IMG/VR virus record: IMGVR_UViG_3300031628_000005
Location: 1-49,998 of that record
Reading direction: 5' to 3' (one strand)
DNA length: 49,998 nt
Origin: a virus
Taxonomy: Duplodnaviria > Caudoviricetes
Every line of letters begins with the position of its first letter. The first letter of the stretch is position 1. A program made the position numbers and the translations under genes. Shown here in pieces: positions 3,902-48,551 of this stretch. A model generated the notes under the pieces. It made no database searches and was not told where the DNA came from. It saw nothing but the letters and a program-made list of their open reading frames with translations.

Positions 3902-4088
3902 ATTAAAAAAGTATTGCATATTACTGGCAGTTGGGTTGAATTTTACAAATTTTTGCTTTTTTTTACAGGAAAATCCAATTATTTTAGCCGTCCCCACCCA
4001 CATTTTAATACGTTTTTCCTTATATATCGGCGTTTTTTTTATCACCTTTACCCCAGATATTTACGCTTTTCCCGTACGTTTACGAGTT

Positions 4089-4120
4089 TACAAGCATAAT
4101 ACGATCATCATTGGATAATA
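4089..4120 (+). promoter_or_regulatory. early phage promoter copy 1
   Basis: TACAA-gcat-AATACG-atcatcatt-GGATAATA. Confidence 0.75.
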
Positions 4121-4149
4121 TATATGTAATCAAGCAGACAATAAACTAA

Positions 4150-4201
4150 GACTAATTGTCGTATGACATATCGTCACTGACATTGTGTCATGACATAAGA
4201 C
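4150..4201. repeat. tandem array of GAC-N5-GTC palindromes
   Basis: GACtaattGTC 4150-4160, GACatatcGTC 4165-4175, GACattgtGTC 4179-4189, plus half-sites at 4192 and 4199. Confidence 0.7.
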
Positions 4202-4255
4202 ATTAACTATAAATTAAACCAATAAACAATTATACACCTATAAACAAAAACTATT

Positions 4256-4354
4256 ATGAGAAAATTCAAACACACATTACTACTAAGATTTACACAACTA
4301 AGAACATTTATTAAGAATATTGAAATACAAGGTTTAGACGAAACTACTTGGTAA
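4256..4354 (+). CDS. 32-aa early hypothetical protein
   Basis: MRKFKHTLLLRFTQLRTFIKNIEIQGLDETTW, with A-rich leader AAACAAAAACTATTATG. Confidence 0.55.
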   Translation: MRKFKHTLLLRFTQLRTFIKNIEIQGLDETTW

Positions 4355-4386
4355 TACAAACTAAATACGAATACAAACGGATAATA
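4355..4386 (+). promoter_or_regulatory. early phage promoter copy 2
   Basis: TACAA-acta-AATACG-aatacaaac-GGATAATA, ending 21 nt before ATG 4408. Confidence 0.75.
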
Positions 4387-4407
4387 ATAATGTAACTAAA
4401 AATAACT

Positions 4408-4584
4408 ATGCAATATATACTAACTTGTCAGAACGGCAAACAAATCGACATGACTTCTTACATAAATCTTCAATCAGAAAGTAAACTAACTAGACAAGAT
4501 GTTGTTGACAGAATAGAATTCTACAAATCTACTAACTTAACAAAATCTTCTTCTTATAATCTTTTACAAAATATAATATTATAA
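4408..4584 (+). CDS. 58-aa early hypothetical protein
   Basis: MQYILTCQNGKQIDMTSYINLQ...NIIL, directly after promoter copy 2 with an AAAAATAACTATG leader. Confidence 0.6.
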   Translation: MQYILTCQNGKQIDMTSYINLQSESKLTRQDVVDRIEFYKSTNLTKSSSYNLLQNIIL

Positions 4585-4635
4585 CTAATAAATGGTGACT
4601 ATCCGAACCAGAGTAATACACAAACTGGATAGACA

Positions 4636-4676
4636 AGACATAATGGTTGATGTGAGTTCGATTCTCGCGATGTCTA
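4636..4676 (+). ncRNA. armless tRNA-like element (acceptor stem + T arm only)
   Basis: AGACAT/ATGTCT stem, T arm GTGAG-TTCGATT-CTCGC, ending ACTA like the tRNA-Met. Intergenic, with no D or anticodon arm. Confidence 0.45.
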
Positions 4677-4691
4677 CTAAAATATAATACT

Positions 4692-4895
4692 ATGACTGAA
4701 AAATTTAAAGATTACCCGGCTGATCAAATTAAAGCCAAACTAAAACGAGTTGATGAGTTCGAAGCAAAGTACGGGCCTAAAGCTACAAGTAAATCTTGGC
4801 GTAAATGGTGTACTGACTACAGCTACAGAAAACAAGAATGGCAATTTAGACAAAACTTTGCTAATACAATAATGCAAAATCAAACAACTTACTAA
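4692..4895 (+). CDS. early hypothetical protein
   Basis: 67-aa ORF with A-rich leader. Confidence 0.65.
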   Translation: MTEKFKDYPADQIKAKLKRVDEFEAKYGPKATSKSWRKWCTDYSYRKQEWQFRQNFANTIMQNQTTY

Positions 4896-5059
4896 TGGAA
4901 GTAATGATATTAAACGGTGAAAGATACCTCATCAATACACAAACTCACGACGGCGGCGACCATCAATGTGACTATTTAATAAAACAATTTCCAGATGACG
5001 TTGAAATTGACTGGGATGAAGTGAAGCATTCAGATTTTACAAACAAAATACGATTGTAA
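4895..5059 (+). CDS. 54-aa acidic early hypothetical protein
   Basis: MEVMILNGERYLINTQTHDGGDHQCDYL...KIRL, TAATG overlap with the previous gene. Confidence 0.6.
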   Translation: MEVMILNGERYLINTQTHDGGDHQCDYLIKQFPDDVEIDWDEVKHSDFTNKIRL

Positions 5060-5069
5060 CTGGATAATA
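5038..5069 (+). promoter_or_regulatory. early phage promoter copy 3
   Basis: TACAA-acaa-AATACG-attgtaact-GGATAATA. Confidence 0.75.
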
Positions 5070-5093
5070 TAAATGTAACTAAAAAATAATACT

Positions 5094-5294
5094 ATGAAAA
5101 ACTTTAAAAAAATTAACTCAACAACAATTATGCTTGACAGCAAAAAGTATAAAGGCTATACTGTTGGCGACTTACCTAAAAGATTTGCATTCATTTACAA
5201 TGAAGACAATGACCAAGACGGCATAACTGAATTCTTCAACTACCAAGGCTTAACTTATGTTGAACATAACCCTTCAATCTGGTCTTATGTCTAA
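5094..5294 (+). CDS. early hypothetical protein
   Basis: 66-aa ORF directly after promoter copy 3. Confidence 0.65.
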   Translation: MKNFKKINSTTIMLDSKKYKGYTVGDLPKRFAFIYNEDNDQDGITEFFNYQGLTYVEHNPSIWSYV

Positions 5295-5505
5295 TCCAAC
5301 TAATATGAAAGAATTGTGCGATTATGCAAAACAAGCACAAAAAAACCGTGGTCGCGAGCATAGGCGTGCCCACTCCCATGAGAAGTGTAGCGGACTGACA
5401 GATATTGAGTACAATGCGGTGGTTACACGTCAAAAAAGTACTTTTGCCAAAGGCAAATCATATGCTTACACTGCTCGATGGAGAGCCTTTACAGAAACCC
5501 TTTAA
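5287..5505 (+). CDS. basic early hypothetical protein
   Basis: ATG 5287 (MSNPTNMKEL...) overlaps the previous stop, so it is preferred over the track's start at 5257. Confidence 0.6.
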   Translation: MSNPTNMKELCDYAKQAQKNRGREHRRAHSHEKCSGLTDIEYNAVVTRQKSTFAKGKSYAYTARWRAFTETL

Positions 5506-5514
5506 ACTACAACT

Positions 5515-5694
5515 ATGAGTAAAATGAAACAACTAGACGAAATCGCAGAAGGAATTGCGGAAGTCACCAAAGAACTAATGTATGATTCAATTGACTGGCA
5601 ACTGTCAGATTTTGAACAAGACGGTGATGACTACAACGCTATTCATTCTGAAGTAATGAGATTAGCAATTGAAAAAATGTATTTACAAACGTAA
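5515..5694 (+). CDS. 59-aa acidic early hypothetical protein
   Basis: MSKMKQLDEIAEGIAEVTKELMYDSIDWQLSDFEQDGDDYN...; AAACTACAACTATG leader. Not in the ORF track. Confidence 0.65.
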   Translation: MSKMKQLDEIAEGIAEVTKELMYDSIDWQLSDFEQDGDDYNAIHSEVMRLAIEKMYLQT

Positions 5695-5715
5695 TACGAA
5701 GCTAATTGGATAATA
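5684..5715 (+). promoter_or_regulatory. early phage promoter copy 4
   Basis: TACAA-acgt-AATACG-aagctaatt-GGATAATA. Confidence 0.75.
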
Positions 5716-5744
5716 ATAATGTAACAAATAAAAACAAATAAACT

Positions 5745-5933
5745 ATGTATTGTAAATGCGGTGAAAATGTACATCCTGTACGACTTGAATTAGGCTATAA
5801 CACTTGTATGCCTTGTAGTACAACCCAAACCTATTCATATGTTCCTATAATCGAACATAAAACCGGAAATACAATACAAATTGTCAGCCAAGAAGTAAGT
5901 GCATCTGTGCATCGTGCTTGGCGACGTAAATAA
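5745..5933 (+). CDS. DksA/TraR-like C4 zinc-finger protein
   Basis: CKCGENVHPVRLELGYNTCMPC resembles the C..CG..I...RL......C..C DksA/TraR finger. No N-terminal coiled coil. Confidence 0.55.
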   Translation: MYCKCGENVHPVRLELGYNTCMPCSTTQTYSYVPIIEHKTGNTIQIVSQEVSASVHRAWRRK

Positions 5934-5935
5934 CC

Positions 5936-6013
5936 GGGGGTGACTTGGTATTGACGTGATAGAAAGCCTATATGGAACTATTGCGGAAGACAGTTCGAAT
6001 CTGTCCACCTCCA
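5936..6013 (+). ncRNA. minimal tmRNA: tRNA-like domain only, no tag ORF
   Basis: Acceptor GGGGGTG/CACCTCC-A with G3.U70. Stemless D-loop ACTTGGTATTGA. Helix CGTGATAG/CTATTGCG, GAA linker, T arm GACAG-TTCGAAT-CTGTC. Confidence 0.8.
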
Positions 6014-6022
6014 CTGAAAAAT

Positions 6023-6054
6023 TACAAACAGAATACGACAACTAACGGATAATA
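6023..6054 (+). promoter_or_regulatory. early phage promoter copy 5
   Basis: TACAA-acag-AATACG-acaactaac-GGATAATA. Confidence 0.75.
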
Positions 6055-6076
6055 TAAACGTAACTAATAAATAACT

Positions 6077-6286
6077 ATGACAAAAACACTTTACGAAAGA
6101 ATGAAACCAGAATTTAAAACAACTTTAGCTAAAAAATATGCTGACAGACCACATTCACACGAAGCTTTAATCAGAATGCTTAGCGATGAACACTATTATA
6201 CTGCAATTCCCTACGGCGATGCGTTTGATATCATGGCTTCTTGCGATATAGATTTTCTAGGCGAAGCATTTAAGCAATCAAAATGA
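6077..6286 (+). CDS. early hypothetical protein
   Basis: 69-aa ORF directly after promoter copy 5. Confidence 0.65.
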   Translation: MTKTLYERMKPEFKTTLAKKYADRPHSHEALIRMLSDEHYYTAIPYGDAFDIMASCDIDFLGEAFKQSK

Positions 6287-6510
6287 TTATGTGTGAATGG
6301 GCGCTTGCAGATATTAAGAATAGAGCAAGCAGTAAAGCTTTTGCTAAAGTTACAATACTAAAATTAGATATTGAAGACTATAAGCGAAGCTTAAAACAAG
6401 GAACTTACGGCGGAATTACTTACGAAGAAGCTGAACAAGTACTTGATGGCTACAAAACAGAGCTAAAAGTATGGAATTTTATAGCAGAATTAATAGAAAA
6501 ACAAAGATAA
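6283..6510 (+). CDS. early hypothetical protein (helical)
   Basis: 75 aa, ATGA overlap with the previous gene. Confidence 0.6.
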   Translation: MIMCEWALADIKNRASSKAFAKVTILKLDIEDYKRSLKQGTYGGITYEEAEQVLDGYKTELKVWNFIAELIEKQR

Positions 6511-6959
6511 TGAAAGAAAAACTAATAACAGACGAGCTTATTGAAGCTAAAATGATAAGCTATGGCTTTGGCGAAACAGATTCTCACGATGAAGAATATG
6601 TAAGAAAACTAATACTTGAGCATTACGACGCTGAGCTAACTGATCAGTGGCAAAAAAATTGCGATTACTATATTTACGAAGAATCTACAGCCGATGGCTA
6701 CAGCGTATTTGTAGCTTGCTACGACACTAGCTCTATAAGTGTAAACGAAGACATACATTATTACGACAGTGATCTTAGCGGCAAGCTTGAAAATGCAATT
6801 AGAGACGGCGGTGAAATATACGTTGACGACTATCATCAAGACTTTATTGATGACGCTATGCAAGAATTATATTTATATTTAGCCGAAAGATTTCACCAGC
6901 AAGCAATTGACGAGCTTGAAGATGAAGGCTACAAACAAAATACGGCGGTAGCTGGATAA
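6510..6959 (+). CDS. highly acidic early protein (candidate DNA mimic)
   Basis: Start 6510 via TAATG overlap, 149 aa. Hand count 37 D/E versus 10 K/R, and Tyr-rich. Confidence 0.6.
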   Translation: MKEKLITDELIEAKMISYGFGETDSHDEEYVRKLILEHYDAELTDQWQKNCDYYIYEESTADGYSVFVACYDTSSISVNEDIHYYDSDLSGKLENAIRDGGEIYVDDYHQDFIDDAMQELYLYLAERFHQQAIDELEDEGYKQNTAVAG

Positions 6960-6972: not shown

Positions 6973-7046
6973 AGCGCTGTAGAGCAGATGGTCAGCTCGC
7001 TAGGCTCATAATCTAGAGGTCGCAGGTTCGAATCCTGCCGGCGCAA
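6973..7046 (+). tRNA. tRNA-Met(CAT), initiator-like
   Basis: Cloverleaf: AGCGCTG/CGGCGCA (1:72 mismatch), D stem GAGC/GCTC, anticodon arm CTAGG-CTCATAA-TCTAG, T arm GCAGG-TTCGAAT-CCTGC. CCA is not encoded. Confidence 0.9.
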
Positions 7047-7068
7047 CTAACTTTAAATACAATAACTT

Positions 7069-7299
7069 ATGAACAAATTAATTTTACCGTTTCAAACTGT
7101 AGAAGTTAACTCTACGGCAATTTCAACTGCTCAATATGAGTACAATGACTACAGATTGACACTAACATTTAATAATGGCACAGCCTATAACTACAATGAT
7201 GTACCAAACTTCGTATTCGAAGGCTTAAGAACATCTGCGTCTAAAGGCAAATTCATTAACAAACACATTTTATCCTCTTATAAATTCAAAAGAGCATAA
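7069..7299 (+). CDS. KTSC-domain protein
   Basis: VNSTAISTAQY...LTLTFNNGTAYNYNDVP...L..SASKGKFINKHI matches the KTSC pattern. Confidence 0.8.
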   Translation: MNKLILPFQTVEVNSTAISTAQYEYNDYRLTLTFNNGTAYNYNDVPNFVFEGLRTSASKGKFINKHILSSYKFKRA

Positions 7300-13521: not shown

Positions 13522-14332
13522 ATATAAAAAGCTTATGGAAACAATCCTTTACAAAGGATTGGATAAAGCAGATAGAACAGGCACAGGGACAAAGTCTGTC
13601 TTCGGAGCAACGATTAGACATGATATGTCTATGGGCTTCCCTATCCTTACAGGAAAACGCATTAGTTTCAAAGCTGCAAAAACAGAGTTGCTTTGGATCT
13701 TACAAGGAAGAACTGATCTTAAATACCTAGAAGATAACGGCGTTAAGTATTGGCGGCCAGATTATGAGCGTTCAGGCAGAACAGATGAAACATTAGGCCC
13801 TGTATATGGCAAACAATGGCGTGATTTTGGAGGCGTAGATCAACTTTGGCAACTTGTATATAACATTAAGCACAATCCAAGCTCAAGACGTTTAATGGTT
13901 AGCGCATGGAATCCTGCTGAAATGGAAGATATGGTGTTGCCTCCCTGTCATTATGCTTTTCAAGTTTATATAAATGATGGCAAGCTAGATCTTATGTGGC
14001 AACAAAGATCAGCAGATGTTTTTCTTGGTCTACCGTACGATATTGCTATGTATGGCTTATTACTCGAGTTATTAGCCAAAGGCTCTAATATGCAGCCTGG
14101 GCAGCTAATAGGACAGCTTGGCGATTGTCATTTGTACAATAATCATTTAGATCAAGCTGAAATATACTTAAGTAGATCAAAGCGAGCTTTGCCTAAACTA
14201 TCTGTATTAGATGGCGTTAAACTTGATAAAAAAATTCAAAGTCGAATTTGCATACCTCAGCTAAATGAAATTAAATTAATTAACTACAACCCTTATCCTG
14301 CAATTAAAGCAGAATTAAGCGTTGGCAAATAA
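13502..14332 (+). CDS. thyA: thymidylate synthase
   Basis: DRTGTGT, LGPVYGKQWR, LPPCH, QRSADVFLGLPYD and DCHLYNNH motifs. ATG 13502 preferred. Confidence 0.96.
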   Translation: MTNIENEYKKLMETILYKGLDKADRTGTGTKSVFGATIRHDMSMGFPILTGKRISFKAAKTELLWILQGRTDLKYLEDNGVKYWRPDYERSGRTDETLGPVYGKQWRDFGGVDQLWQLVYNIKHNPSSRRLMVSAWNPAEMEDMVLPPCHYAFQVYINDGKLDLMWQQRSADVFLGLPYDIAMYGLLLELLAKGSNMQPGQLIGQLGDCHLYNNHLDQAEIYLSRSKRALPKLSVLDGVKLDKKIQSRICIPQLNEIKLINYNPYPAIKAELSVGK

Positions 14333-14342
14333 AACAAAACAT

Positions 14343-15098
14343 ATGTATTATTTATACCACATACCGGGTAAAAAGATTGGCGTTACACGTGATCTTAATA
14401 CACGGGTTACCCTTATACAAGGTTATAAGGAGAATGAGTATGAAGTTCTTGAACGATCAGACGATATAGATTATATATCAGACCGTGAAATAGAGCTTCA
14501 AAAGTCTTATGGCTATAAAGTTGATAGGACTAAATATAAAAACTTAAATAAAAAATCTAATCAAATGAAAATTAACGCTACAGAGCAGACAAGTACATTT
14601 CCTTGTCCATTAAACAAGCTTAAAGGCCGTCTAATGGACAATATAGGCTTAAGCTGGAAAACATCTCACGGAGTATTTGAAATTAAAACAGAGCATATTA
14701 GCTGGATAGATGCTAATGCTAAAACATCTATGTATAACGATAAAAAATGTTATATATATAATAAAGCTTTTTATGAAGCCTTTTATAATTTAAATGAAGA
14801 CTTAGATAGCTTTGATTTAATAAGAGCCTGGGCTGATGAAAGAGGCATATACAAAGAAGGCAATTCACATACTCAATATGTTAAGCTAATGGAAGAAGCA
14901 GGTGAACTAGCTCAAGCATTACTTAAAAAAGATTCTTACGAAATAAAAGATGCTATTGGTGATATGGTTGTTGTACTAACAAACCTAGCCGCGTTAGAAG
15001 GCATGCAAATTGAAAGCTGTATTGAATCTGCATATAATGAAATTGCTAAACGTAAGGGCAAAATGATTAATGGAACATTTGTAAAAGAAACACTATGA
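14343..15098 (+). CDS. GIY-YIG-like domain fused to MazG-like NTP pyrophosphohydrolase
   Basis: N-term YYLYHI..KKIGVTRDLNTR...RE. C-term KLMEEAGELAQA...IKDAIGDMVVVL (MazG EExxE...DxxxD). Confidence 0.75.
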   Translation: MYYLYHIPGKKIGVTRDLNTRVTLIQGYKENEYEVLERSDDIDYISDREIELQKSYGYKVDRTKYKNLNKKSNQMKINATEQTSTFPCPLNKLKGRLMDNIGLSWKTSHGVFEIKTEHISWIDANAKTSMYNDKKCYIYNKAFYEAFYNLNEDLDSFDLIRAWADERGIYKEGNSHTQYVKLMEEAGELAQALLKKDSYEIKDAIGDMVVVLTNLAALEGMQIESCIESAYNEIAKRKGKMINGTFVKETL

Positions 15099-17506: not shown

Positions 17507-19225
17507 ATGTGGAATAATGAATGGATTAAAGGAGAAGATTACCCTACGTGGGGTAATACAGACGTATACAAGAAGACTATATCCGGGGGATATTTATTTG
17601 ACGGAGAAACGCCTCGTGAAGCATACACCCGCGTCAGTAAAACAGTTGCTCGTAGACTTTATAAGCCTGAAATGGCTGAAAAGTTTTTTGAGTACATATG
17701 GAATGGCTGGCTTTGTCTTGCTAGTCCAGTGCTTAGTAATACTGGTACTGATAGAGGTCTTCCTATATCATGCTTTGGGATTGATGTGGCAGACAGTATA
17801 CAAGACATAGGTCAAAAGAATTTAGAAATGATGCTACTCGCTAAGCACGGCGGTGGAGTTGGTATCGGTATAAATCAAATAAGACCCGCCGGCGCTAGAA
17901 TTACAGGAAATGGAACATCAGACGGAGTTGTGCCCTTTTGCAAGATATATGACAGCACAATACTTGCAACAAACCAAGGATCAGTCAGAAGAGGTGCTGC
18001 ATCCGTTAATATTAACATTGAGCATGATGATTTTGAAGAATGGCTTGAAATACGGGAGCCCAAAGGAGATGTTAACAGACAAAGCCTTAATTTACACCAA
18101 TGCGCAATTATTGGTGATAAATTTATGCGAAAGCTTGAGCAAGGAGATGCTGAGGCTAGAAATAAATGGAGTAAGTTGCTTAGAAAACGAAAAGCAACTG
18201 GAGAGCCGTATATTATGTTTAAAGGAAACGTTAATAAAAAAAATCCAAAAGCATACAAAGAAAACGGATTAAAAGTACATATGACAAACATATGTTCAGA
18301 AATTGCATTACACACAGATGAAAACCACAGCTTTGTATGTTGTTTATCATCATTAAACTTAGCAAAATATGACGAATGGAAAGACACTAATATTATTTAT
18401 GACGCCATATGGTTTCTTGACGGTGTTATGGAAGAATTTATTCAAAGGGCGAAAGGATTACGCGGCTTCGAAAATTCTATACGATCTGCACAAAAAGGGC
18501 GTGCACTCGGCCTGGGTGTCCTCGGATGGCACACATATTTACAAGAGAAGGGTATTCCTTTCGAAGGTTTATTATCTCAGTTTGAAACTAGGAAAATATT
18601 TTCGCAAATTAAAATTGAAAGTGAAAGAGCTTCCATGGCACTTGCGGAAACTTACGGAGAGCCTTTGTGGTGCGCTGGGACTGGCGTACGTAATACTCAT
18701 CTTCGTGCTGTTGCTCCTACCGTTAGCAATAGTAAGCTCAGTGGCAACGTCTCGGCGGGAATAGAACCTTGGGCTGCTAATGTTTTTACAGAGCAATCAG
18801 CTAAAGGTACTTTTATACGTAAAAACCCTACACTGGTTAAACTTTTAAGAAAACATAAAATAAACACAAATGAAATATGGAATAAGATATTGGCTGACGG
18901 TGGTTCTGTCCAAGATGTTGCTGAGCTTGATAATATTATTATGGGCCACGACATCCCTGCAAAGGAAGTATTTAAAACTTTTAAAGAAATTAATCAACTC
19001 GAATTAGTTAATCAAGCTGGATTGAGACAGCAGTATGTAGATCAATCAGTTAGTTTAAACTTAGCTTTCCCAAGCGTAGCAACGCCTAAATGGCTTAATA
19101 AGGTGCATTTCGAGGCTTGGAAAAAAGGAGTTAAGACTTTATATTATACAAGAACAGAAAGCGTCTTACGGGGCGATATTGCAGCCACAGCAATGAATGA
19201 AGATTGTTTGGCGTGTGATGGTTAA
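17507..19225 (+). CDS. nrdA: class Ia ribonucleotide reductase alpha subunit (no ATP cone)
   Basis: SPVLSN, ISCF, GGGVG, RRGA, TNICSEI, CCLSSLNL, APTVS, KTLYY and C-terminal CLAC. Confidence 0.96.
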   Translation: MWNNEWIKGEDYPTWGNTDVYKKTISGGYLFDGETPREAYTRVSKTVARRLYKPEMAEKFFEYIWNGWLCLASPVLSNTGTDRGLPISCFGIDVADSIQDIGQKNLEMMLLAKHGGGVGIGINQIRPAGARITGNGTSDGVVPFCKIYDSTILATNQGSVRRGAASVNINIEHDDFEEWLEIREPKGDVNRQSLNLHQCAIIGDKFMRKLEQGDAEARNKWSKLLRKRKATGEPYIMFKGNVNKKNPKAYKENGLKVHMTNICSEIALHTDENHSFVCCLSSLNLAKYDEWKDTNIIYDAIWFLDGVMEEFIQRAKGLRGFENSIRSAQKGRALGLGVLGWHTYLQEKGIPFEGLLSQFETRKIFSQIKIESERASMALAETYGEPLWCAGTGVRNTHLRAVAPTVSNSKLSGNVSAGIEPWAANVFTEQSAKGTFIRKNPTLVKLLRKHKINTNEIWNKILADGGSVQDVAELDNIIMGHDIPAKEVFKTFKEINQLELVNQAGLRQQYVDQSVSLNLAFPSVATPKWLNKVHFEAWKKGVKTLYYTRTESVLRGDIAATAMNEDCLACDG

Positions 19226-47727: not shown

Positions 47728-48001
47728 TTTTAGATCTTCCTTCTGCAAAACCTTTAAAAGATTTTTCTTCTTTTATTTCTTTAGGCTTTTCATTTAATAA
47801 AGCTTCTTCAGCTTCTAATCTATTTAGTATTTCAAAAGCATCAAATATAGCTAGCTTTTTTGTAGCTGCCGCATTCTTTAATCTATCTGCAGTAATATCA
47901 TCCCCTGAATCAACAATAGCTTCTTTAGCTACTTTGATTAGCTCCTCAACTGCTATTTGCCCAGCTTGGATTATATTCAACTTCGTTTCCTTGGTATTCA
48001 T
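47720..48001 (-). CDS. small helical protein, possible terminase small subunit
   Basis: 93 aa overlapping the terL start. Function inferred from position only. Confidence 0.45.
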   Translation of the reverse strand: MNTKETKLNIIQAGQIAVEELIKVAKEAIVDSGDDITADRLKNAAATKKLAIFDAFEILNRLEAEEALLNEKPKEIKEEKSFKGFAEGRSKNV

Positions 48002-48551
48002 ATTTAATTACAATATCATTAGATTTCATACAATATAAACGCTTGCCATCAATTAAAAATTCCCATTCGCTATTAGGTGTATAACCTACTAAGTCTCCTG
48101 GGTTAATATTAAGTGCTTTTAAAGAGCTGTTACCATATTTTAATATACCAACTAAGCTTTGCTCTTTATCTAGCGTTAAAGACTCATTGTCTTTTATCGG
48201 GGTTATAAAACAGCGATCACCAAATGAATGCCAACCTGTTTTATTTTTATATAAATAAATTTGATCTATGGCGCAAAAATGTAAGCTTTCTTTAAACCAA
48301 GATCTGCTTTTTTTCTTATTGCCTTTCATGTCATAAAACGTTCTAAAAACATTCTGATGAATAACAATTATATCTCCTACATTAATACTTGTATTAAAAG
48401 CTTTTGGTGTTTCTAAAACTTTAGCTAATCTATTTACAAATTTAAAATCTTCTATTTTTGTATTTACAATTAACTCTTTATCCCCAATTTTAATTTTATT
48501 ACTGTATTCATCACCTAGTGGTTCTACAATAAAATCATATATACTTTTCAA
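47946..48551 (-). CDS. GroES-like co-chaperonin (two tandem domains)
   Basis: FIVEP...INVGDIIVI and GDRCFITPI...INPGDLVGY...IDGKRLYCMKSNDIV, two GroES-like units. Confidence 0.7.
   Translation of the reverse strand: MKSIYDFIVEPLGDEYSNKIKIGDKELIVNTKIEDFKFVNRLAKVLETPKAFNTSINVGDIIVIHQNVFRTFYDMKGNKKKSRSWFKESLHFCAIDQIYLYKNKTGWHSFGDRCFITPIKDNESLTLDKEQSLVGILKYGNSSLKALNINPGDLVGYTPNSEWEFLIDGKRLYCMKSNDIVIKYEYQGNEVEYNPSWANSS

Follow-up and report, generated by a model that had tools for sequence, protein, structure and literature searches.

The closest described relative of the element studied here comes from mycobacteriophage DS6A. Hudson, Lau and Williams (2014) include an entry "Mycobacterium phage DS6A (TLD only)", TLD being the tRNA-like domain of tmRNA, and report that a DS6A-like molecule strongly inhibits tmRNA whether or not it can be charged, perhaps by titrating SmpB (PMC4131195; papers given by PMC number are cited from excerpts). 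Nawrocki (2025), citing Mao 2009, describes the DS6A form as an inhibitor of endogenous tmRNA in E. coli and counts nine "standard, no CDS" forms among 97,179 tmRNA sequences from NCBI genomes and RefSeq viruses (PMC11915505). In the excerpts of these two papers, DS6A is the one phage case named. The literature that we searched, with most subscription papers outside its scope, held no family-level description, only mentions of DS6A. A preliminary description of the present locus had known of no described phage case; the DS6A entry in PMC4131195 is such a case, and the claim of novelty fails.

Standard tmRNA (Rfam RF00023), which phages such as NootNoot and Cellulophaga phage Calle_1 encode in full, shares the whole TLD and helix 2a with our element, but our element has no pseudoknots, resume codon, or tag open reading frame (ORF). 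The CDS-less tmRNAs of organelles (jakobid and oomycete mitochondria and Mallomonadaceae plastids) have a tag-less TLD in common with it. However, the mitochondrial forms mostly come permuted and with a nuclear SmpB dedicated to them (PMC11915505), and they replace tmRNA, whereas our element would coexist with the tmRNA of the host. The role of a tag-less tmRNA in a cell is a question common to phages and mitochondria.

By the window we mean the whole 49,998-nt stretch analyzed, which is identical with its virus record, linear, and estimated to be 78% complete. RF00023 matched this window once, at 5936-6016, with 57.6 bits (gathering score, 47) and an E value of 4.8e-20 over the whole window. 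The match is to the ends of tmRNA, with 11 nt standing in for 304 model positions. Sequence, model match, and predicted fold therefore agree with the original claim of a 78-nt element that has the TLD of tmRNA and a deleted tag domain. A standard full-length tmRNA was ruled out, as the mRNA-like domain with its tag ORF and pseudoknots is missing. A tRNA-Ala was also ruled out: there is no D stem and no 7-nt anticodon loop with NGC, the tRNA model RF00005 matched nothing at the element at E≤1, and ARAGORN did not call it, reporting only a tRNA-Met at 6973-7047 in the window. The better tRNA-Ala fit that had been named as a danger to the claim was absent. Finally, a permuted (two-piece) tmRNA was ruled out because the TLD halves stand in standard order on one molecule and the permuted-tmRNA model RF04321 found nothing at the element.

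Table 1. Positions of the mini-tmRNA gene, its parts, and its immediate neighbors in the window.
Feature	Position	Strand	Basis or remark
TLD-only (tag-less) mini-tmRNA gene, G1 to discriminator A73	5936..6013	+	Rfam match, predicted fold
Acceptor stem, 5' strand (G3 = 5938)	5936..5942	+	Sequence, predicted fold
Stemless D-loop with GG and terminal GA	5943..5954	+	Sequence, Rfam alignment
Helix 2a (8 bp) and cap, in place of pseudoknots and tag ORF	5955..5985	+	Predicted fold, family parse
GAA linker	5986..5988	+	Sequence, family parse
T arm, 5-bp stem, UUCGAAU loop	5989..6005	+	Sequence, predicted fold
Acceptor stem, 3' strand (U70 = 6010), and discriminator A6013	6006..6013	+	Sequence
62-aa ORF, no known family	5745..5933	+	Stop ends 2 nt before G1
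Phage repeat (TTACAAAC-NN-AATACG ... GGATAATA)	5683..5725	+	Repeat count; promoter role inferred
Next promoter-like repeat copy	6022..6064	+	Starts 8 nt after A6013

All seven acceptor pairs form (5936-5942/6006-6012), including G3.U70, and the 12-nt D-loop has no stem and ends in UUGA. Because CTG directly follows A6013, CCA is not encoded and its addition would fall to the host, for a predicted mature form of about 81 nt. Helix 2a (5955-5962/5978-5985) has eight pairs, two of them G.U, and is capped by an AAAG bulge, a CC/GG hairpin (5967-5975), and AA. It had been noted that 15 nt remain inside helix 2; these are more than an unstructured leftover, as the arrangement of bulge, hairpin, and AA is a hallmark of the family. 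The predicted fold reproduces the TLD structure at -25.8 kcal/mol (z of -2.23, equalled by 3 of 200 shuffles). Model R1, which has the element itself in its seed, scores it at 69.1 bits. The 3-nt linker described as GA-N is present as GAA, but full-length tmRNAs mostly have GAC (102 of 105 sampled, with GAA in none), and GAA is a minority variant in the family too (8 of 103 members).

By its layout, the element belongs to the DS6A kind, and its type was thus already known. It has TLD halves in standard order, G3.U70, A73, a stemless D-loop ending in GA, a 3-nt linker, a T arm, neither anticodon loop nor pseudoknots nor tag ORF, and a helix 2 closed by a DS6A-like short cap. The DS6A element (JN698994, 28478-28557) is like it in gene order, identity pair, discriminator, D-loop, length (78-80 nt), the lack of an encoded CCA, and a helix 2a cap made of an A-rich bulge and a CC/GG hairpin, and both phages are without SmpB. 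The two differ in the hairpin, which in the window has 2 bp and a UAUAU loop in place of the common CCGCACGCGG, in the linker (GAA in the window, CAC in DS6A), and in the early-region location of the window element. They also differ in their phages: the window phage is by terminase kinship a Flavobacteriia-type podovirus, while the host of DS6A is Mycobacterium.

The genes of the window encode portal, terminase, virion proteins, ligase, sigma factor, primase-helicase, and ribonucleotide reductase. Its terminase matches 87 phage records, all but one of them (86) phages of Flavobacterium, Cellulophaga, Tenacibaculum, or Maribacter; the best named relatives stand at 45%. This kinship points to a flavobacterial host, and the virus is likely a phage of marine Flavobacteriia. 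The mini form was absent from five cultured or GenBank terminase relatives, of which Calle_1 has a full tmRNA, and a BLAST search of the element against cultured phages gave no record at 80% coverage.

The element lies among small ORFs with no known family and is flanked by repeat copies at 5683 and 6022. The preliminary description placed it under "early promoter copy 4". The repeat is real (nine matches in the window versus 0.89 expected), with the copy at 5683 as number four of the close plus-strand copies in the cluster at 4088-6929, but that it is a promoter, likely one for the ORF at 5745-5933 and the element together, is our inference. No sigma-70 promoter or terminator was found at 5600-6200. 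Expression was examined in the assembled contigs of six runs, each with less than 0.1 of the words. In two metatranscriptome runs, contigs span 5935-6015/6020 with 0 and 1 differences, showing no ends, strand, or CCA. The high depth in runs X1 and X2 extends to flanks and repeats, and X1 and X2 may be DNA.

Several other features of the window were observed. The tRNA-Met(CAT) at 6973-7047 (+) has an unpaired first position, is likely of the initiator type, and directly follows a promoter-like repeat copy. Close to it, 7069-7299 encodes a KTSC-domain protein; a MazG-like pyrophosphatase (14322-15098) and a GroES-like co-chaperonin (47946-48551) are also present. At 4636-4676 (+) there is a 41-nt minihelix-like element with a 6-bp acceptor-like stem, a short GG-containing loop, a full T arm, and a discriminator A. 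Neither Rfam nor ARAGORN called it, and counterparts with compensatory changes occur in L564-L567 and L572-L574. It is possibly an RNase P site or a second tRNA mimic.

We then asked how common such elements are. A strict pattern found 12 viral loci with near-identical elements in different flanks. A generic pattern with a gap of 25-55 nt matched at least 120 IMG/VR loci, or an estimated ~530 stretches (stored stretches, not species), compared with 3 for a decoy of identical shape. The same search with a gap of 295-325 nt, a 31-nt length band of full tmRNAs, gave an estimate of ~1,300 (again stored stretches rather than species); many of these are close to the end of a record and are possibly host genes at the edge of a prophage. 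With a gap of 56-86 nt there were 43 loci, 38 of them unique, mostly real longer tag-less forms with a few by chance. Mini lengths cluster, with 150 of 162 at 75-83 nt. That an estimated 530 viral stretches carry the mini form turns a curiosity into a common phage trait, one that ARAGORN misses; judged by these patterns, the tag-less mini-tmRNA is widespread in phages and mostly unannotated. Separately, the tag-less TLD forms at loci L253-L295 measure 97-125 nt and have branched arms; among them is one recurring subfamily of 108-111 nt.

The generic pattern leaves the T stem, helix 2a, and linker free, so that each could vary. Among the 103 unique matches listed, the T stem was fully paired (5/5) in all 103, at least 5 of the first 6 helix 2a positions were paired in 94, and the middle A of the linker was kept in 100; one match (L036) is a tRNA-Ala. 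A second pattern leaves the acceptor stem free. Of its 95 unique matches, 88 pair 7/7, and all 88 have G3.U70 and A73. The remaining seven comprise four without a T stem, which look like chance, one that keeps G3.U70 with one mismatch, and two out of register.

Covariation was measured in 105 representatives at <85% identity, one misparsed row having been dropped. Because D-loops of different length put a MAFFT alignment out of register, RNAalifold run on it failed to recover the acceptor stem; therefore, an anchored parse was used, in which acceptor pairs 1 to 3 and the T stem are imposed or filtered and so were not counted as evidence. Helix 2a pairs 2 to 6 form in 96-103 of the 105 rows, compared with shuffle means of 42-53 (the shuffle ignores relatedness, but the diversity of the representatives is high), with 49-68 two-sided changes each. 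Acceptor pairs 4 to 7 swap freely, pair 5 having 53 two-sided changes in 105. The compensatory changes proposed as a check on the locus are thus found in all stems. Within the arm, CC occurs at positions 9-16 in 92 of 105, with a GG partner in 80 of those 92, and 25 of the 105 share the exact DS6A core. Of 105 full tmRNAs, 32 have a GCAYGC-like motif at arm offset 21-23, and 32 of 105 minis have one at 13-16; this is only suggestive of a cap derived from tmRNA helix 2.

These data bear on the view that the element has no function, being a decayed tmRNA, what is left of an integration site, one half of a two-piece tmRNA, or an unusual tRNA-Ala. At 78% completeness, the window record could miss a second piece. 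However, the two TLD strands occur in standard order on a single molecule with helix 2 closed, without an RF04321 or RF00005 match. Moreover, 48 of 50 viral carrier records have a single RF00023 match at E≤1e-12, 30 of the 50 being at least 90% complete, and no integrase was found among 127 ORFs neighboring family members or 38 window ORFs. With its clustered lengths and compensatory changes, the family makes this view extremely improbable, and covariation has largely refuted it.

No SmpB gene was found in any of the 50 viral carrier records, which were chosen for length, or in five of five cultured phages. A full tmRNA accompanies the mini in one of the 50 records, and two minis occur together in one. 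Unannotated copies are present in the cultured Streptomyces phages LuckySocke (at 17977-18054), a phage of Streptomyces lividans, and BRock, and BLAST added GiJojo and pSt2308; phages of S. griseus have copies as well. These copies make phage suppression or rewiring of ribosome rescue directly testable. The Streptomyces phages NootNoot and Samisti12 have, besides their own full tmRNA, a more divergent unannotated mini that deviates from the GA/GAC junction; these minis (L607:2342-2418, or 84341-84417 of NootNoot, and L608:396-472 for Samisti12) both lie within tRNA clusters.

In bacterial genomes, pattern matches were mostly a different, tRNA-like repeat of Eremiobacteraeota, along with scattered minis and a Poribacteria group. 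The former is multicopy and 75 nt long (e.g., L326:156-227 and 853-924 and three copies in L376), with G3.U70, a short D stem, no CCA, and a 3' AGCC, and it forms a family distinct from the TLD minis. The Poribacteria have a TLD-only copy of 85-86 nt (L351:4001-4082(+), L304, L302, and L313), which at the two loci checked adjoins a PLP-dependent decarboxylase-like gene.

Since the carriers have no SmpB, the RNA would use that of the host. Our preferred reading, to which we give a probability of about 0.45, is that the element is an alanine-charged RNA that works with host SmpB, takes over the stalled chain, and leaves it without an SsrA tag. The mini-tmRNA would bind host SmpB, enter stalled ribosomes in competition with host tmRNA, and accept the nascent chain without adding the degradation tag. 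As a net result, SsrA tagging would decrease during infection, and phage proteins would be spared. Cleavage by RNase P, addition of CCA, and the identity rules of alanyl-tRNA synthetase are established. In structures, SmpB contacts A15, U17, G19, and A334 of tmRNA (PMC8363625); by our alignment, U5951 and G5953 of the window are the equivalents of E. coli U17 and G19, and the middle A of the GAA linker is that of A334. In vitro, TLD and SmpB accept a peptide and synthesize polyalanine even when mRNA is absent (Shimizu and Ueda 2006, cited in PMC3929946 and PMC2481249). The reported inhibition of endogenous tmRNA in E. coli by the DS6A element, which has the same layout and apical motif, also counts in favor.

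Could the RNA simply be a passive sponge, with SmpB titration as its only function and charging incidental? DS6A-like molecules inhibit whether chargeable or not, perhaps by such titration (PMC4131195), which means that charging is not needed for inhibition, and 100 of 103 members retain the A of the linker that corresponds to an SmpB contact. However, a sponge needs neither G3.U70 nor A73, and these are invariant in the 88 fully paired members while neighboring pairs vary. This suggests that charging is likely under selection and points to an action on the ribosome, not only to titration. We therefore consider a passive sponge very unlikely.

Some observations fit the preferred reading, that of a charged competitor of host tmRNA, less well. 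The DS6A inhibition came from expression in E. coli. The GAA linker of the window is absent from the sampled full-length tmRNAs. In NootNoot, Samisti12, and the one viral record with both, a mini next to a full tmRNA would be odd for a pure inhibitor, although the two Streptomyces minis deviate at the junction. In addition, alanine tails are themselves degrons in Bacillus (PMC8012679), and so the idea that proteins are spared may be wrong.

We also considered whether the RNA might supplement trans-translation, recycling stalled ribosomes with host SmpB and adding alanine tails. Lacking a single-stranded mRNA domain, it would withstand the nucleases by which host tmRNA is cut. The outcome could resemble that of RqcH in Bacillus ribosome quality control, with mRNA-independent addition of alanine in common, but RqcH is a protein that acts on split 50S subunits with normal tRNA-Ala (PMC8012679), and the likeness is functional and hypothetical. 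This helper function is consistent with the invariant alanine identity, the polyalanine synthesis cited above, and the retention of tag-less mitochondrial tmRNAs with SmpB (PMC11915505); alanine tails can also serve as ClpXP degrons (PMC8012679). A full tmRNA co-occurs with the mini in some phages and in three of four Poribacteria genomes searched, and a tRNA gene lies in the 1.2-1.5 kb flanks of 21 of 92 loci. Against this, we know of no release step for a peptidyl-TLD. The DS6A form is, moreover, reported to inhibit tmRNA (PMC4131195 and PMC11915505), and we regard a helper as unlikely. A broader proposal sees in these elements, across many phage lineages, an alanine-tailing device made of RNA alone, in which charged mini-tmRNA and host SmpB free ribosomes and write alanine tails without mRNA, and which radiated into variants of 68-143 nt in the Flavobacteriia-phage lineage of the window. 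Although doubtful, it would, if true, give trans-translation a third outcome beside tagging and Arf-type release and provide a functional counterpart of RqcH.

Another reading is that the element is a cis-acting RNase P signal that cuts polycistronic phage transcripts. No fixed partner gene was found among the 127 neighboring ORFs, most of which have no Pfam family; only head proteases and NlpC/P60 recur. The window element lies 2 nt downstream of a stop codon, the minihelix-like element at 4636-4676 is conserved in relatives, three minis lie in frame within a portal gene, and several lie between prohead protease and major head genes, all of which would suit a processing signal. However, processing requires neither G3.U70 nor the tmRNA junction, and in the actinophage-like group a -10-like box just 5' of G1, seen by eye, suggests a stand-alone RNA. 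We consider a processing signal highly improbable.

At these loci the following was seen. In L016, L038, L039, L075, L084, and L092, the mini stands between a prohead protease gene and a gene of 360 aa (in L016, the major head protein), with a hairpin and the -10-like box immediately 5' of G1. In L043:1201-1292(-), L048:1201-1292(+), and L069:1201-1274(+), it is in frame within the 3' end of the portal gene, with a Clp-type head protease downstream and mini lengths that differ by 18 nt; RNase P cleavage there would yield a non-stop portal mRNA. G1 completes a stop codon in L019, L034, L055, and L056, but a conserved non-stop-mRNA trick was rejected, as the stop of the related L040 lies entirely before G1.

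To define close relatives of the window phage, we took the 23 of 53 ligase relatives that are at least 54% identical; among them, L567-L569 are one sequence, L559 equals L561, and L554 is identical to the window over the region. In 18 of the 23, a tag-less tRNA-like RNA with G3.U70 and A73 lies upstream of ligase in the early region; in the other five, the upstream DNA was too short (three) or the RNA was not found (two). Only 3 of these 18 RNAs have a DS6A-type cap. The others are 68-143 nt long and have unrelated arms, many with a GGUAAG D-loop and an AAC linker. The best match of three divergent RNAs checked was RF00023, under the gathering score. The constant part in this lineage is the alanine acceptor and T arm. 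The GGUAAG/AAC junctions and unrelated arms mean that SmpB binding may not be the conserved trait of the lineage, which counts against the charged competitor.

A further reading is a decoy for anti-phage defenses that bind tmRNA or alanyl-tRNA, such as tRNA-targeting toxins or CoCoNuTs with their SmpB-like domain. CoCoNuTs have SmpB-like domains predicted to bind tmRNA (PMC11090510). A constant acceptor and T arm with a varying arm is what an arms race would produce, one close relative has two tandem copies, and the window element is located among small early ORFs. However, CoCoNuT targeting is itself only predicted, and many family members are in head-gene operons rather than early regions. 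We consider a decoy quite unlikely. The divergent G3.U70 RNAs of the early region are those of L556, L559-L561, L563-L569, and L571-L574, and the tandem pair is in L566, at 4703-4782 and 4786-4881.
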